From assembly GCA_902795675.1 (NCBI GenBank), contig CADBLZ010000113.1:1-41739 (forward strand): a stretch of DNA of 41,739 bases, given 5' to 3'. Origin of the DNA: an uncultured Erysipelotrichaceae bacterium. GTDB lineage: Bacteria; Bacillota_I; Bacilli_A; RF39; UBA660. A program made the position numbers and the translations under genes. Positions 6,226-11,115 of this stretch are shown here, piece after piece; position 1 is the first letter of the stretch, and each line of letters begins with the position of its first letter. The notes below the pieces were generated by a model. It was given only the letters and a program-made list of their open reading frames with translations, did not search any database and was not told where the DNA came from.

Positions 6226-7665
6226 TTATTTTAAGATATTCTTTAGAATAACTGTTTTTGTTCTAGACATTTCTTTAAGTGTAGTCATTACACCTTCATT
6301 ACCTATACCACTATGATTCCATCCACCAAATGGCATTTCGAATGATCTGAAGAATGATGCACCATTAATAATAGCTCCACCACAATCTAATTGGTTAGCA
6401 ATTTTCATTGCATTAGAAGCATCTTTTGAGAAGATACATCCACATAAACCATAAGATGATTGGTTAGCTATCTTAATAGCTTCATTGATGTCATCAAAAC
6501 CAATTATTGGAATAACTGGACCAAAGATTTCCATATCTTTAGCAACTTCCATCTTTTTAGTTACGTTATCTAAGATTGTTATATCATAGAATGCACCATC
6601 TCTTTTACCACCATAGATGATTGTTGCACCTTCAGCTACTGTTTTATTAACTTGTTCTTCAACATTTTTAGCAGCTTGTTCAGATATTAAGCAACCAATT
6701 TCTACAGTTGGATCACTTGGCATTCCTCTTTTAATTTTAGATACACGTTTAATTAATTTATCAATAAATTCTTTCTTAACTGAGTTATGAATTAAGAAAC
6801 GTTTAGAAGCACAACATACTTGTCCAGTATTATATAATCTACCCCAAACAACTTCTTCAACAGCTAGATCAACGTCGCCATCTCTATCTAGAATGAAGGC
6901 ATCGTTTCCGCCTAATTCTAACATTGTATGAGTTAAGTTTTGAGCACAAGTACGCATTGTTTCCATACCACTCTTAGTAGCACCAGTAAGTGATACTAAG
7001 TTAACACCAGGATTAGCAGCTAATGCTTGAGCAGCAAATCCACCAGTACCATTAATTACGTTAATAGCACCTTCATCAACACCTGCTTCAATTAATAATT
7101 CAGCATATTTAGTTAGTGTTAATGGATTATGTGGTGATGGTTTCATAATTACAGCATTACCCATTAATAGAGCAGCTGGAATTTTTTGACAGAATAAATC
7201 TGAAGGGAAGTTGAAAGGAATGATTGCTTCAACTACACCTAACGGTTGTTGTTGAGTAAATTGAAGTGTATTTTCATTTCCTTTTTCTTGACCTGCAGGA
7301 ATTACATTACCATACATATGCTTAGCTTGTTCACAGAATGCTGGAATACCAATTGAAACGTTAGCGATTTCGCCATAAGCTTCAGTAATTGGTTTACCAG
7401 TTTCATCTGATAATAATTTAGCTAATTCATCTTTATGTTTTTCAACTAATGATACGAATTTCATTAGTATTGCAGCACGTTCATAAATAGGTTTTTTAAC
7501 CCATAATTTTTGACCTTTTCTTGCTGCAGCTACAGCAGCATCACAATCTTTTTGTGTACTTTCTGGAACTGTATCAATTACTTCTCTTGTTGCTGGATTA
7601 GTAATTGTTATTACAGCACCATCAGATGCGTCTAACCATTTATTTCCTATTAAATTCTTTGCCAT
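6226..7665 (-). CDS. NAD(P)+-dependent aldehyde dehydrogenase
   Basis: ALDH family signatures are present: FNFP, MLELGGND (catalytic Glu), NTGQVCCASKR (catalytic Cys), PFGGWNHSGIG. Start taken at the ATG at 7665 (MAKNLIGNKW) with RBS AGGTGA. Confidence 0.9.
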   Translation of the reverse strand: MAKNLIGNKWLDASDGAVITITNPATREVIDTVPESTQKDCDAAVAAARKGQKLWVKKPIYERAAILMKFVSLVEKHKDELAKLLSDETGKPITEAYGEIANVSIGIPAFCEQAKHMYGNVIPAGQEKGNENTLQFTQQQPLGVVEAIIPFNFPSDLFCQKIPAALLMGNAVIMKPSPHNPLTLTKYAELLIEAGVDEGAINVINGTGGFAAQALAANPGVNLVSLTGATKSGMETMRTCAQNLTHTMLELGGNDAFILDRDGDVDLAVEEVVWGRLYNTGQVCCASKRFLIHNSVKKEFIDKLIKRVSKIKRGMPSDPTVEIGCLISEQAAKNVEEQVNKTVAEGATIIYGGKRDGAFYDITILDNVTKKMEVAKDMEIFGPVIPIIGFDDINEAIKIANQSSYGLCGCIFSKDASNAMKIANQLDCGGAIINGASFFRSFEMPFGGWNHSGIGNEGVMTTLKEMSRTKTVILKNILK

Positions 7666-7674
7666 GATTGTCAC

Positions 7675-8823
7675 CTACTTTGAGAATCCTGTAAATGATA
7701 ATGATAAGCCTCCAATAGTAGCTCCTGAATGATTAGCTTGACCATATTCACCAAATGTGAAAGCAACAATGAATGGAATATCTCCACAAGTATTTTTAAT
7801 AGCAACAAAGTCTTCATCAATTCTGTTACCAATGTGAAGTTTTCTTCCACCACAGTGAACTAAGAATAATGCAGCTGGATCAAAACCTTCTTTTACAGCT
7901 TTGATTGTATCAACAGCACCATTAATTAAACCATCTACGTCATTATTTAATTGAATAATTGCAGTTTTTTCAGCTACTTTAGCACCAACATTGAATGAGT
8001 AATCTGGATTACCAATCATTGGGTGACGTACAGCAGTTAAATCACCTTGTAATGTTTTTACACCTAATGCATAAGGAATAGATGCAGCTAATAAGTTTTG
8101 ACCCATTAGTTCATCAGCATTTAAGCCATTCCATTCAGCATATTTTTTAAGAGCAGGAACACCATCAATTTCAACAATTTGACGATCTCCGTTCATTTTT
8201 GTTACGATACCAACTTTATCAGTTTCTTTATATGCACCTGTGAATACAGTTTTAATATCTCTTGTAGTATAGAATAATGCGATTGCACATCCATCTCCAA
8301 ATGATTTGTCTTCGCAGAAAACTTTCCATTCGCCTACTACAGCATCATCTGCTGCGCTTCCACCAAACATAGGAATTTCACCTAATACATCTTCAATACC
8401 TTTAACGTAGTATTCTTCTTCAGCAGGACTTGCAAACATTGCATAAGCTACTGGAGCAAATTTTTTACCAGCTTGAGCCATTGCTTCTTTAGCTAGTTTA
8501 CGACCTGTTTCACGAGGGTCATTACCTCTTTCAGATGCAGCTACACCTACTTGAAGTTCATTGTCTTCTAGAACCATCATACCAGCAAAACCATCTGGGC
8601 TTGAAATGATTCCTTCTGGTGTCATAATTGCACCACTTGATGTTACACCGATTACCTTAACATCTTTGTTAACAGATTTGATACCTTTAATTACTTCATT
8701 TTGGTCGTATTTAACTGAAGTAAATAAGAAACCAATCTTTGGATTTTTAATACCTTTTAAGGCATTATTAGCAGTTTCTACACCGGCTTGGAAACTGTCT
8801 TTTTGGATACTAGATCCTACCAT
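7675..8823 (-). CDS. FIST-domain (FIST_N + FIST_C) putative sensory protein
   Basis: PKIGFLFTSVKYD...VIGVTSSGAI is FIST_N-like and FTFGEYGQANH...GG is FIST_C-like. The start was moved to the ATG at 8823, which has a perfect AAAGGAGG RBS. The stop lies 9 nt before the ALDH start. Confidence 0.7.
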   Translation of the reverse strand: MVGSSIQKDSFQAGVETANNALKGIKNPKIGFLFTSVKYDQNEVIKGIKSVNKDVKVIGVTSSGAIMTPEGIISSPDGFAGMMVLEDNELQVGVAASERGNDPRETGRKLAKEAMAQAGKKFAPVAYAMFASPAEEEYYVKGIEDVLGEIPMFGGSAADDAVVGEWKVFCEDKSFGDGCAIALFYTTRDIKTVFTGAYKETDKVGIVTKMNGDRQIVEIDGVPALKKYAEWNGLNADELMGQNLLAASIPYALGVKTLQGDLTAVRHPMIGNPDYSFNVGAKVAEKTAIIQLNNDVDGLINGAVDTIKAVKEGFDPAALFLVHCGGRKLHIGNRIDEDFVAIKNTCGDIPFIVAFTFGEYGQANHSGATIGGLSLSFTGFSK

Positions 8824-8906
8824 TGCTTTCAAATAAATTCCTCCTTTTATTCTTATCCGCAACTTCGTTTCGCGTATTTTAGGATTTCCTACAATCCTCT
8901 ATTATT

Positions 8907-8935
8907 AATATATAACATTTTAGTTAAAATTTCAA
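8907..8935 (-). promoter_or_regulatory. Putative promoter of the FIST-ALDH operon
   Basis: Minus strand: TTGAAA (8935-8930), 17 nt, TATATT (8912-8907). It lies immediately downstream of the 8943-8976 terminator. Confidence 0.5.
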
Positions 8936-8942
8936 TGTTTGG

Positions 8943-8976
8943 AGAAAAATAAAAGAAGCAATATTTCTATTGCTTC
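8943..8976 (-). terminator. Strong intrinsic terminator closing the ORF-free unit
   Basis: Minus strand: GAAGCAATA-GAAA-TATTGCTTC (8976-8955), followed by TTTTATTTTT. Confidence 0.75.
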
Positions 8977-10021
8977 CTTTATTATTAAAAAGAGAATATT
9001 AATCATTCCCTTTTCGGGATTTTCGGTTGTCAATAACAACCGTTTAATCCCATTTTAGTTTTAATGCATTTGTACGTTTTAAATTAACTCCCATATAGTC
9101 TAATGAATTAACATACTATTTTGATAGTTTTCATAAACTAGATGACATTAATTCATCTTGGTTCAAATATCCTATTACATTCACGCTTAACTATACTGTT
9201 GTATAAGAGTTCTCCAATTCATCGCTAATTTTTAATTATACGGATCCACACGATATAACATATTGTGCATTGCCAACCGCCAGCTAAGCAGTCAGATATC
9301 ACTCAGTGTTTGGATTGCTTGATTCCCTTCGAAGACAAGTTTAAGGCTCTCCAATTTTTAAACGCGGCCAAGTTATTTTAAATATTTATACTTTCTTTAA
9401 AATCCCAAGAAATTCTCCCTTATATATTATTCATAAAAGAGCTGTTTCAATTCAAGTAAAGTAGTTATAAATATTTGCCATAAAATGAACAAATAATGCA
9501 TAACATACTTGCGATTTTATTATATTTAATAAAATCTGAACTAGTATGAAAGCCAGCTATCATTTTCGAAAGCAATATTACCACCCATATTGGGACAATA
9601 GAAAATGCTAACTATTAATAATATTACCTCGGTATTTGGTAACCCTTTCAGCAATTGTCTATAGGTGATAGATTTAAACCTATAAACAATTGACAGTTTA
9701 CGACTGGAACTTACAATAACTCATAAATTCCCATCAGTTTGAAGCTTATCACTTCTCGCTGGAAATTCGGATTGGGGGCCTAGTAAACAATTACTAGTAT
9801 ACAAATAGACTGCAAATTCTACATGTAACAATCCATTTTTTCACTATTTGCGGTAGCGAAACATAGTCGACTTTGCGGGTCTTCTATAATTTTAATACTA
9901 ATCAACGTCATGCAATTCTACAAACGGAATCTAAATTTCTTTATACTCTCACTGTATTTCAAGTTTATGTTCTATATACATGGTTACTTAATATTGTGTC
10001 GTATCCTGTATACCTCCTACT
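8943..10021 (-). ncRNA. Candidate large (~1.08 kb) structured non-coding RNA, family unrecognised
   Basis: The track shows no ORF of 60 aa or more on either strand from 8863 to 10064. The unit is bounded by a minus-strand promoter (10056-10028) and terminator (8976-8943). It has GC-rich islands and many hairpins, several with G.U pairs that work only in the minus sense. See the findings. Confidence 0.45.
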
Positions 10022-10027
10022 ATATTT

Positions 10028-10056
10028 AGTATAAACATTTGAGCGGCTTTAGTCAA
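10028..10056 (-). promoter_or_regulatory. Near-consensus sigma-A promoter at the head of the ORF-free unit
   Basis: Minus strand: TTGACT (10056-10051), 17 nt, TATACT (10033-10028). It starts 9 nt after the dusB stop codon. Confidence 0.6.
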
Positions 10057-10064
10057 TAGTTAAA

Positions 10065-11048
10065 TTATTGGTTGTCATTTAAAAATTGCTCATATTCATT
10101 TAGAATACCAAATATTTCTTCACTTGTCTTAGCGTGACATATTTGATCCTTGATTTCTTTGCATTTTGGTAAACCTTTTAAGTACCAAGTTATATGGGAT
10201 CTGATTTCTAAAAGAGCTCTTTTTTCATCTTTATCTTCTACTAGTAAATTATAGTGTCTTTTAATCATAGCTATTTTTTCTTGGAATGGTACTATTTGTG
10301 GTTCTTTGCCTGTTTCTAAGTATTCGATACATTCTCTAATTAACCATGGATTACCAAGCACTCCACGGCCAATCATGACAGCATCACAACCAGTTTCTTC
10401 TATCATTCTTTTAGCATCATAACAGGTAACAACATCGCCATTACCAATTACAGGAATAGATACAGCTTCTTTAACTTGTTTAATGATGTTCCAGTCTGCT
10501 TTTCCGCTATAACCTTGAGCTCTTGTTCTACCATGAATAGCAATGGCTTTAGCGCCTGCTTCTTCACATTTTTTAGCTATCTCAACACAGTTAATGTGAT
10601 TTTCATCCCAACCACTTCTCATTTTAACAGTTACAGGTATATCAACTGCTTCAACAACTGCTTTTACAATCTCATAAACTTTATCTGGATTTTTTAATAA
10701 TGCACTACCAGCTTGAGCTTTAACAGCAACTTTAGGTACGGGGCAGCCCATATTGATATCAATAATATCTGGATGCATTTTTTCATTAACAATTTTAGCT
10801 GCAGTAACAAATGATTCTTTATCACTACCAAAGATTTGTTGAGATATAGGTCTTTCCATATCAGTCATTTTTAATAAATCAAACGTTTTGTTGTTACCAT
10901 ATGTTATGGCTTTATCACTAACCATTTCAGCATAGATTAGCCCTGCTCCCATTTCTTTTATTATCTTACGATAAGAAGTATTAGAGATACCAGCCATTGG
11001 CGCTAAAACGATTTGGTTTTTAATATCTACATTACCTATTTTCCACAT
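10065..11048 (-). CDS. dusB: tRNA-dihydrouridine synthase
   Basis: MWKIGNVDIKNQIVLAPMAGISNTSYRKI...AEMVSDKAI aligns with the DusB N-terminus. Also present are DINMGCP, HGRTR and the TIM-barrel FMN-binding layout. Start at the ATG at 11048, 9 nt after AAAGGGA. Confidence 0.9.
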   Translation of the reverse strand: MWKIGNVDIKNQIVLAPMAGISNTSYRKIIKEMGAGLIYAEMVSDKAITYGNNKTFDLLKMTDMERPISQQIFGSDKESFVTAAKIVNEKMHPDIIDINMGCPVPKVAVKAQAGSALLKNPDKVYEIVKAVVEAVDIPVTVKMRSGWDENHINCVEIAKKCEEAGAKAIAIHGRTRAQGYSGKADWNIIKQVKEAVSIPVIGNGDVVTCYDAKRMIEETGCDAVMIGRGVLGNPWLIRECIEYLETGKEPQIVPFQEKIAMIKRHYNLLVEDKDEKRALLEIRSHITWYLKGLPKCKEIKDQICHAKTSEEIFGILNEYEQFLNDNQ

Positions 11049-11115
11049 AATATTCATCCCTTTAAGTCGTAAGTATTATAACAAATATGTTAATAAATGT
11101 ATATTTTTATAAAAA

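Follow-up and report, generated by a model that had tools for sequence, protein, structure and literature searches.

The minus strand of the window (the whole 41,739-nt stretch of DNA analysed here) very probably carries, at ~10021-8985, a free-standing gene whose product is a highly structured non-coding RNA of ~1,040 nt, unrelated to any Rfam family. Copies at ~70% identity over ~1 kb are present in 25 of the 27 species genomes of the genus Candidatus Coprovivens/UBA11963 (RF39), which comprises uncultured gut bacteria, and when these are compared variable stems alternate with invariant loops and junctions. Outside rRNA, few bacterial RNAs above ~500 nt with complex conserved folds are known. 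Moreover, RF39 is an uncultured, genome-reduced gut lineage, and streamlined genomes are not expected to keep a non-coding kilobase without strong selection. RNase P, tmRNA, group I/II introns, OLE, GOLLD and ROOL each act as a ribozyme, a ribonucleoprotein core or, as most recently recognised, an RNA-only assembly (PMC12286853). To these, a genus-wide chromosomal RNA of this length with >260 conserved pairs and no Rfam relative adds a new class; orphan ornate RNAs in general are known, and what is new is the family, together with its fold and host range.

A probable minus-strand RNA gene with its own promoter and terminator

The gene and its flanking signals are located as follows.

8985-10021, minus strand: RNA gene, predicted transcript of ~1,037 nt
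10028-10056, minus strand: sigma-70 promoter TTGACT-17-TATACT, with the -35 box at 10056-10051 and the -10 box at 10033-10028
8985-9012, minus strand: intrinsic terminator, in the G000 copy AAGGGAAUG-AUUAA-UAUUCUCUU followed by a U run

The predicted span runs from the purine 7-8 nt past the -10 box to the U run of the terminator. The promoter matches the consensus at 10 of 12 positions, and TTGAC(T/A)-N17-TATA(C/A)T stands at this position in each of the 23 genome copies of full length and in 27 copies from metagenomes. The terminator, which takes the form GAACGAUUAAUGUUC plus U7-9 in most species, is kept in every copy whose sequence reaches that point, and its helix is 97% canonical with six covarying pairs. 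Transcription of the RNA, the position of its ends and its abundance are predicted from this conservation of promoter and terminator.

The region contains no open reading frame under translation tables 11 or 4, with 22-35 stops per frame and TAA, TAG and TGA all present in every frame; under table 4 no stop-to-stop frame is longer than 100 aa. Period-3 power is 0.95x the median, compared with 421x in the adjacent FIST gene. A protein-coding gene in an alternative code, or a pseudogene, is ruled out by the stops in every frame together with the lack of periodicity in the substitutions.

Covariation supports a large fold in the minus sense

The consensus fold from 44 non-redundant copies comprises 265 base pairs in ~40 helices and is 93% canonical, with compensatory double changes at 154 pairs; 242 of the 265 form in the G000 copy. 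An alignment of 24 copies gave 231 pairs (93.3% canonical), of which 117 are double-change pairs against 66 ± 4 in shuffles (maximum 77), a significance that is overstated since the copies are related. Two controls are free of that assumption: double-change pairs drop to 45-57 when the partners are slid, and in a model-free mutual information ranking of 464,166 column pairs pairs of the fold take 23 of the first 25 places and 36 of the first 50. An independent tool run on 9840-9563 found 66 pairs, 95.9% paired compared with 82.9% after shuffling, and 46 double-change pairs against 25.5 in shuffles (0/500 shuffles) and 16-21 with slid partners. The 24- and 44-copy alignments give different folds for two sub-regions, 9536-9513 and 9163-9103.

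Read in the minus sense, the fold has about ten G.U pairs for every A.C mismatch (651 vs 70 in 24 copies; 1,508 vs 139 in 44 copies), indicating that the RNA is the minus strand. The whole fold is 93.3% canonical in the minus sense and 82.5% in the plus sense, and RNAalifold gave -250 vs -179 for the two senses. Single-sequence energies carry less information. The minimum free energy of 9065-10020 is -216.8 on the minus strand against -197.8 ± 7.6 in 100 dinucleotide shuffles (z -2.49), and -178.9 against -161.7 ± 7.2 on the plus strand (z -2.40), so that the excess over shuffled controls proposed as a check by an earlier, sequence-only reading is present but modest, and as a strand test it is uninformative. 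That reading had taken eight hairpins folded by hand to support a structured minus-strand RNA, and the covariation in 44 homologues, the preponderance of G.U over A.C and the conserved promoter and terminator bear it out.

Architecture of the RNA

The fold has a tripartite layout. Long-range helices P1-P3 close off a 5' domain, a long hairpin whose loop is invariant occupies the centre, and a long-range helix of 15 bp closes the 3' domain. The main elements, in 5' to 3' order along the RNA, are listed below; helix numbers are those of the sequence-only reading.

9632-10020, minus strand: 5' domain, closed by P1 (10020-10010/9642-9632) and P2/P3 (10009-9998/9704-9693)
9801-9826, minus strand: hairpin 9826-9816/9810-9801, 99-100% canonical, 3-4 covarying pairs
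9780-9797, minus strand: hairpin CUAGUAA-UUGU-UUACUAG (helix 5), 97-98% canonical, 6 of 7 pairs with double changes
9706-9761, minus strand: two hairpins, 9761-9754/9743-9735 (96% canonical, 7/8 pairs covary) and 9731-9723/9714-9706 (94% canonical, 9/9 covary)
9652-9692, minus strand: helix 1, 9692-9679/9665-9652, 91-97% canonical, 8-10 covarying pairs
9567-9631, minus strand: central long hairpin with the invariant loop UUAGCAUUUUC, 15 bp, 94% canonical, 12 covarying pairs
9085-9555, minus strand: 3' domain, closed by the 15-bp long-range helix 9555-9540/9099-9085
9381-9475, minus strand: variable arm of several tiers, in which the internal loops GAAUU and UUGGGAU are conserved; the apical stem includes helix 2
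9182-9366, minus strand: most conserved core, 80% mean column identity
9135-9163, minus strand: hairpin overlapping helix 7 in the same register, 9163-9158/9140-9135 plus 9155-9153/9145-9143
9065-9073, minus strand: invariant 3' motif ACAAAUGCA, with which the conserved body of the RNA ends

P2/P3 spans ~300 nt and all 10 of its pairs covary. P1 is near-invariant; a few copies compensate (GGCAU/GUGCC, GGAAU/GUUCC) and there are two exceptions. The invariant 5' sequence AGUAAGGAGGUAUAC falls inside P1, and an invariant AAGGAGG sits 4-5 nt from the predicted 5' end of the RNA, with no start codon conserved after it. In these respects the motif resembles STAB-SD, the 5' stabiliser with a Shine-Dalgarno-like sequence in the Bacillus cryIIIA mRNA; it differs in that P1 takes up its last two G residues and the flanking bases. 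Being partly paired in this way, AAGGAGG may be structural rather than a 30S binding site.

The loop of helix 1 (9672-9667) pairs with 9561-9556 over 6 bp, four of which covary. This is the sole stack between unpaired columns with at least three covarying pairs, and the parallel control gave none, so that at least one pseudoknot in the RNA is supported by covariation. The central loop UUAGCAUUUUC is invariant in 44 of 44 copies, and the GCAUUU within it (9608-9603) is complementary to the invariant AAAUGC (9071-9066) of the 3' motif, which reads A(C/U)AAAUG(C/U)A in nearly all copies and in which AAAUGC is identical in 44/44. Since neither side varies, and the two cannot covary, we can only hypothesise that they make contact, either within one molecule or between two.

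The helix that closes the 3' domain is 95% canonical, with five covarying pairs and 135 G.U vs 8 A.C. Within this domain the three arm helices 9475-9468/9388-9381, 9461-9455/9401-9395 and 9448-9435/9422-9409 have 8, 7 and 12 covarying pairs, respectively. The tip of the arm holds a module that is single in all copies except that of species G003, where 11-13 tandem modules of ~45 nt each are found (UGGUGAAAUAG...UGGAUACAUAA). Most helices of the core are invariant, and covariation there argues neither for nor against them; because they barely vary, the helices of the core (9366-9182) and of P1 rest mainly on energy and conservation. Across the RNA, conserved GGA-containing motifs recur (UAAGGAGG, UUGGGAU, and UUGGAGA twice).

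All eight hairpins folded by hand in the sequence-only reading, and the counter-example that it gave, pair at their positions when checked base by base. Helices 1 to 3 do lose pairs on the plus strand, as it had argued (14/14 vs 13/14, 9/9 vs 7/9 and 8/8 vs 6/8). Its proposal that covariation be sought at these exact pairs uncovered a large conserved fold, in which the list of helices needed correction. Helix 1 is 91-92% canonical at its exact columns, with eight double-change pairs and 82 G.U vs 4 A.C, and helix 5 is 97-98% canonical (6/7 pairs covary); both are strongly supported. The exact columns of helix 2 are only 56-61% canonical, but they represent the G000 version of the variable stem 9448-9435/9422-9409, which scores 90% canonical and in which 12 of the 13 pairs covary. 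The A/U hairpin of helix 6 (9513-9536, minus strand) is 74-81% canonical with six double-change pairs; it is in the 24-copy consensus and absent from the 44-copy one, which leaves its standing uncertain. Helix 7 rises from 45% on the first alignment to 84% on the second, and the hairpin at 9135-9163 that overlaps it is 93% canonical with three covarying pairs in 44 copies, whereas another fold is predicted with 24. The remaining three fail the comparison. Helix 3 (65%) does no better than slid controls and is displaced by the two hairpins at 9706-9761, helix 8 (72-74%) is displaced by 9826-9816/9810-9801, and helix 4 (9016-9051, minus strand) is species-specific, lying in a variable spacer, hard to align, between the 3' motif and the terminator where only 3-6 of 24 copies have letters in its columns and other species carry unrelated hairpins or nothing. 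The counter-example at 9249-9267 is indeed better on the plus strand (8/8 vs 7/8); 23 of 24 copies retain its A.C mismatch, and the helices 9302-9299/9268-9265 and 9257-9250/9245-9237 account better for its arms. The earlier caution that AT-rich DNA forms hairpins by chance was thus well placed, given the weak single-sequence energies and the three helices lost.

Distribution and genomic neighbourhood

Along the RNA, invariant blocks form a mosaic with covarying ones, and ~165 columns of the alignment are near-invariant, 69 of them unpaired. The RNA is single-copy and is not repeated within its genome. Every copy derives from a metagenome-assembled genome of a single genus. A covariance model, R1, was built from the conserved core at 9182-9366 (alignment A1) and matched 36 metagenome contigs at 150-219 bits. 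In samples of the family, order and class (150 genomes each) R1 gave two weak matches, both inside ORFs, and blastn in 150 other genera returned short matches only (E>=1e-5). The two viral contigs that match the DNA pattern gave no R1 match, and a phage origin was rejected on this absence from the searched viral contigs. The alignment, helix map and covariance model can serve as a basis for chemical probing, cryo-EM and the search for partners.

On the chromosome the locus is syntenic and lies between housekeeping genes, with dus upstream and FIST-ALDH downstream. FIST lies directly downstream in the same orientation at 32 of the 43 loci with a downstream gene call; three copies (L018/G001, L039/G007 and L107) have no FIST downstream at all, and in eight more (seven from metagenomes and L037/G016) a different gene is immediately downstream. 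The linkage to FIST in most copies leaves some room for a role in cis. In the copies inspected FIST is preceded by a separate promoter, TTGAxx-17-TATAAAAT, and a separate leader of ~75 nt. The FIST-ALDH operon is present in 28 of 149 other genera, and at the four such loci that we inspected a coding gene is immediately upstream, with no gap for an RNA; a functional tie to FIST-ALDH was rejected on this basis. Upstream and divergent, 37 of 44 loci carry an HExxH gene whose protein has no Pfam match. This gene was not found in G000, G190, G021, G022 or G016, and as all five genomes carry the RNA, the HExxH protein was rejected as an obligate partner. From this variation in its surroundings the RNA is judged independent of its neighbours.

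Comparison with known RNA families

We scanned Rfam 15 (4,227 models, including OLE, GOLLD, ROOL, HEARO, raiA, group I/II introns, RNase P, tmRNA, 6S and riboswitches). At gathering thresholds only two tRNAs reach threshold in the whole window, and between 8700 and 10200, with permissive filters and E<=10, only short chance matches on terminator hairpins were obtained. A diverged housekeeping RNA was rejected, as RNase P, 6S, tmRNA and OLE are located elsewhere in these genomes; the OLE model (RF01071) finds another locus in 23 of the 27 genus genomes at 215-246 bits (contig C55:1553-2035 in G000). A literature search, by genus name among other terms, found no description of this RNA.

Long, non-coding and multi-stemmed, with a covarying pseudoknot, the RNA would by these sequence features fall in the operational class of 'ornate' bacterial non-coding RNAs. 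It resembles OLE (including the reduced 'variant 2' of RF39 bacteria) in being large and ornate, with conserved nucleotides alternating with covarying stems, but it does not match the OLE model and is about twice as long. Judged by neighbours alone, dus and FIST-ALDH show no sign of OLE-associated protein genes. OLE is described as a core, single-copy gene in anaerobic Bacillota, RF39 included (PMC11332333). GOLLD (RF01998) is likewise a very large bacterial non-coding RNA with several domains, support from covariation and no known function, and it is the largest ornate class described; however, the ~800 nt cited for it is exceeded by the ~1,040 nt here, there is no sequence or structure match even at E<=10, and GOLLD is phage- or prophage-encoded near tRNA islands whereas the present RNA is chromosomal, syntenic and found in one genus. 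ROOL (RF03087) shares the ornate character, with pseudoknots, no known protein partner and an occurrence in gut and rumen bacteria. It too gives no match, is phage- or prophage-borne and forms an octameric cage. In homo-oligomeric assemblies such as the OLE dimer and the ROOL and GOLLD cages, kissing loops between molecules would be expected, for instance loops that covary from one palindrome to another. The hairpin loops here do not keep palindromes: most copies have the palindrome AUUAAU in the terminator loop, but the variants AUUAGU, UGUGAU and UUUAUA are not palindromic. Palindromic kissing loops are accordingly a doubtful sign of oligomerisation in this RNA.

Possible roles

An origin as chance hairpins of AT-rich intergenic DNA, or as a decayed gene or mobile element without function at the RNA level, can hardly be credited. 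The region has a G+C content of 31%, promoter-like sites are not enriched in the consensus scan (7 seen vs 8.5 expected), the z-scores are modest on both strands and three of the eight hand-found helices are not conserved; however, a kilobase is kept across nearly all species of the genus, the 154 compensatory pairs and the mutual information ranking back the fold, and the sequence is single-copy, absent from viral contigs and free of codon periodicity. The position directly upstream of FIST, co-oriented at 32 of 43 loci, together with the unusual conservation of the terminator sequence, loop GAUUAAUG included, would fit a giant cis-acting leader (a riboswitch or attenuator) that senses a signal and controls terminator read-through into the FIST-aldehyde dehydrogenase operon. 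This we regard as very unlikely: FIST has its separate promoter and ~75-nt leader in the copies inspected, 11 of the 43 loci have another downstream context, the operons inspected in other genera have no such element, and we know of no cis-regulatory RNA near 1 kb with so many independent domains.

Also quite unlikely is a large ribozyme, with the invariant junctions and loops as the active site for some reaction yet to be named. Its size, multi-domain architecture, pseudoknot and many near-invariant unpaired columns would suit one, but it shows no similarity to any Rfam ribozyme family and no hint of a substrate, a processing site or a mobile-element or intron context. Comparable orphan large RNAs are not described as ribozymes in the literature examined, although a similar profile led to ribozyme proposals for OLE (PMC11332333). 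A sponge RNA, sequestering a protein by means of repeated motifs like CsrB/RsmZ or 6S RNA, appears unlikely as well. The array of G003 speaks for it, as amplification of a module is a hallmark of multivalent binding, and so does the recurrence of GGA-containing motifs; but every other copy has a single module, most of the RNA forms a unique, non-repetitive fold and not an array, no protein emerged as a candidate partner, and the G003 array could be an assembly artefact or an oddity of that lineage.

By analogy with OLE, ROOL and GOLLD, the likeliest role is that of a trans-acting structural RNA, a scaffold or assembly RNA, and we put its chance at about even. Acting in trans as a stable structural RNA, it would serve as the core of a ribonucleoprotein or form an RNA-only assembly. 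Its invariant single-stranded segments could then be working or binding surfaces, and the tip of the variable arm a repeatable binding module. More tentatively, the RNA may be the founding member of a new class of giant RNA with a biochemical task of its own in RF39 gut bacteria, for instance as a self-assembling particle or as the catalytic or organising core of a new ribonucleoprotein, with GCAUUU/AAAUGC and the amplifiable arm-tip module as interaction surfaces. With its 5' end buried in P1 and its 3' end in the terminator, the trans-acting RNA would also be protected from exonucleases.

A conserved RNA gene in an ORF-free stretch

The large RNA of the window is an independent, conserved and heavily structured RNA gene, presumably transcribed as 1,037 nt from ~10021 to ~8985. 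It lies between genes for a dihydrouridine synthase and a FIST-domain protein, in 8863-10064, where no ORFs were found. Each frame of this stretch holds 22-35 stop codons, with all three kinds present, and reading it with table 4 gave no frame longer than 100 aa. Column variability among the RNA copies showed no three-base period (power 0.95x the median, versus 421x in the adjacent FIST gene).

Blastn with the minus strand as query aligned its positions 4-1000 (window 10061-9065) to same-genus genomes at ~70% identity. The records of these genomes bear the titles Candidatus Coprovivens or uncultured Bacilli, Tenericutes or Erysipelotrichaceae, with chicken, rabbit, mouse, rumen and human gut as sources. 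The genus corresponds to GTDB UBA11963, order RF39 (PMC8035907). The RNA is present in 25 of its 27 species representatives, the two without it being 85% and 87% complete; one further genome holds a fragment at a contig end. The genome of the window carries a single copy. A degenerate pattern of invariant positions matched 57 metagenome contigs, 36 of which scored 150-219 bits with R1, a covariance model built on 9368-9180. Neither of the two viral contigs among the pattern matches scored, and a phage-borne origin was rejected on this ground. In 150 other genera blastn returned short, weak matches only, and R1 on 150-genome samples each of the family, order and class gave two weak matches, both within ORFs, and nothing credible. 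All copies thus far are from metagenome assemblies of a single genus.

Comparative folding and strand

RNAalifold on 24 genome copies gave 231 pairs, 93.3% canonical, with compensatory double changes at 117, compared with 66 ± 4 (maximum 77) when partners were shuffled among sequences and 45-57 when they were slid by 1-3 columns. The 44 non-redundant copies gave 265 pairs at 93% canonical, and 154 of these showed double changes. APC-corrected mutual information over 464,166 column pairs, assuming no structure, agreed: 23 of the 25 highest-ranked pairs, and 36 of the 50 highest, belong to the fold. An independent run on 9840-9563 recovered six of the helices: 66 pairs, 95.9% paired versus 82.9% shuffled, and 46 double-change pairs versus 25.5, a value reached in 0 of 500 shuffles (slid partners, 16-21). 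Two sub-regions fold differently between the two alignments, and the most conserved helices lie beyond the reach of covariation testing.

Among the consensus pairs there are 651 G.U against 70 A.C with 24 copies, and 1,508 against 139 with 44; read on the plus strand, the same pairs are 82.5% canonical. The refolded reverse complement, with 173 G.U versus 148 A.C, reached -179, against -250 for the minus sense. Together with the promoter and terminator described below, this excess and the refolding contrast settle the RNA on the minus strand. The consensus elements, all on that strand, are as follows.

Consensus architecture of the large RNA
10020-10010 with 9642-9632, minus: P1, which with P2/P3 closes a ~390-nt 5′ domain
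10009-9998 with 9704-9693, minus: P2/P3, all ten pairs covarying
9983-9908, 9950-9926, 9835-9768, 9826-9801, minus: hairpins inside the 5′ domain
9797-9780, 9761-9735, 9731-9706, 9692-9652, minus: further hairpins of the 5′ domain
9631-9567, minus: central 65-nt hairpin with invariant loop UUAGCAUUUUC
9555-9540 with 9099-9085, minus: long-range 15-bp helix closing a ~470-nt 3′ domain
9475-9381, minus: multi-tier variable arm within the 3′ domain
9366-9182, minus: most conserved core, within the 3′ domain
Loop of hairpin 9692-9652 with 9561-9556, minus: 6-bp pseudoknot, four covarying pairs

The pseudoknot is the sole stack of such quality between unpaired columns, and a parallel-strand control gave none. 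The invariant loop sequence GCAUUU (9608-9603) is perfectly complementary to an invariant 3′ AAAUGC (9071-9066) in all 44 copies. A tertiary or intermolecular contact between them is plausible from this complementarity, and is beyond covariation because neither side varies.

The sequence-only reading had described eight hairpins in 9013-9851, some with G.U pairs that become A.C on the plus strand, and one counter-example, 9249-9267, that pairs better on the plus strand. A scripted check of 8400-10500 reproduced all of these pairings. Comparison of homologues strongly supports the hairpins at 9692-9679/9665-9652 and 9797-9780. The stem at 9441-9433/9423-9415 represents, in this genome, an apical stem of the variable arm whose length and register vary among species; 12 of that stem's 13 pairs covary, and the exact columns score poorly only because of this variation. 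The hairpin at 9536-9513 (74-81% canonical) was predicted on one alignment and absent from the other, and that at 9158-9140 kept its register on the larger alignment (9163-9158/9140-9135, 9155-9153/9145-9143) but lost it on the smaller. Three did not hold as conserved elements: 9768-9761/9732-9725 does not outscore slid controls, and two well-covarying hairpins take up its arms; 9851-9844/9808-9801 is displaced by 9826-9816/9810-9801; and 9051-9016 is a species-specific hairpin of the variable spacer before the terminator. The A.C mismatch of the counter-example persists in 23 of 24 copies, and its two arms fit better into 9302-9299/9268-9265 and 9257-9250/9245-9237.

The sequence-only reading had also proposed comparing folding energies with shuffled controls. 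The minimum free energy of 9065-10020 was -216.8 kcal/mol on the minus strand versus -197.8 ± 7.6 in 100 dinucleotide shuffles (z -2.49), and -178.9 versus -161.7 ± 7.2 on the plus strand (z -2.40). The region folds somewhat better than chance, but this modest excess would not carry the claim alone and cannot separate the strands.

Promoter, ends and terminator

In every copy TTGAC(T/A)-17-TATA(C/A)T opens the conserved block, followed ~7 nt downstream by a nearly invariant AUAGUAAGGAGGUAUAC, behind which no start codon is conserved. The 5′ AAGGAGG is reminiscent of Bacillus 5′ stabilisers and is partly buried in P1. The block closes with an invariant ACAAAUGCA (9073-9065). Beyond a spacer of variable length with species-specific hairpins lies a conserved intrinsic terminator, in most species GAACGAUUAAUGUUC then U7-9, and in the genome of the window 9012-9004/8998-8990 plus a U run; six pairs of its stem covary, and 97% of the stem pairings are canonical.

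The terminator loop (window 8990-9012 and its counterpart in all copies; GAUUAAUG in most species) is conserved well beyond terminator requirements. As DNA, the element forms a near-palindrome, AGAACGATTAATGTTCT, and so could double as a protein-binding site.

Relation to known RNAs

No Rfam family matches the RNA, even at E<=10, and a literature search, including by genus name, found no description of it. OLE, RNase P, 6S and tmRNA were rejected as identities, each being found at other loci in genus genomes. OLE occurs in 23 of 27 (215-246 bits versus RF01071; in the genome of the window on contig C55, 1553-2035) in a reduced form of ~485 nt, consistent with the RF39 'variant 2' of PMC11332333. 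The lineage thus keeps two unrelated large ornate RNAs.

Neighbouring genes

Genes around the large RNA
10065-11057, minus: dihydrouridine synthase, upstream flank of the ORF-free stretch
7675-8862, minus: FIST-domain gene, downstream flank
6226-7674, minus: aldehyde dehydrogenase (ALDH), next after the FIST gene
L003/L033 (G004:C61:4226-5383) and 36 other loci, opposite strand: HExxH protein gene, ~60-77 nt upstream of the RNA promoter

Of 149 other genera sampled, 28 have FIST-ALDH operons; at the four such loci inspected, the operon is preceded by a coding gene, or by ORF-free DNA of no more than ~320 nt, and not by the large RNA. A functional tie to FIST-ALDH was rejected on these four loci and on the 11 of 43 RNA loci with different downstream genes. 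Upstream and divergent, the usual neighbour codes for an HExxH protein of 350-390 aa that matches nothing in Pfam and has a HEYGH zinc-peptidase-like motif; one genome (G004) has three tandem paralogues. This protein was not found in five RNA-bearing genomes (that of the window and four others, one of the five 96% complete), and it was rejected as an obligate partner.

The FIST-ALDH mRNA leader (window 8863-8935, with equivalents elsewhere) has AUAAGGAGGAUU a few nucleotides after the -10 box, then a hairpin; this AUAAGGAGGAUU lies well ahead of the actual ribosome-binding site and recalls the AAGGAGG near the 5′ end of the large RNA. Between the conserved terminator and the FIST promoter, 8955-8976 forms a second, bidirectional terminator-like hairpin (GAAGCAAUAGAAAUAUUGCUUC, T-runs flanking on both strands) particular to the genome of the window.

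Possible function

In our estimate there is about an even chance that the RNA acts in trans in a structural role, forming the core of a ribonucleoprotein or of an RNA-only assembly. This reading is suggested by how large the RNA is and how its domains are organised, by its pseudoknot and its unpaired but invariant segments, by its core-gene distribution and by the precedent of OLE, ROOL and GOLLD (PMC12286853; PMC11332333). A cis-acting leader would be expected to act on the gene downstream, and in 32 of the 43 loci this gene is FIST; FIST has a promoter and leader of its own beyond the RNA terminator, and we regard a leader as the least probable of three alternatives. That the RNA is a ribozyme is slightly less remote, though still very unlikely, and a protein sponge is also improbable, if the least so of these three.

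The variable arm may offer a clue to a binding surface. In one species (genome G003, contig C43; L038 1856-2490, equivalent to window ~9395-9440) its tip is replaced by a ~560-630-nt array, which could be either a genuine amplification of binding modules or an assembly artefact. The array holds 11-13 tandem ~45-nt modules, UGGUGAAAUAG ... UGGAUACAUAA (also given as UGGUGAAAUAG-variable hairpin-UGGAUACAUAAACAUA; TRF, period 45, 13.3 copies), and these are related to a motif that other species carry once at the apex, UGGUGAAAWAGCAUAU.
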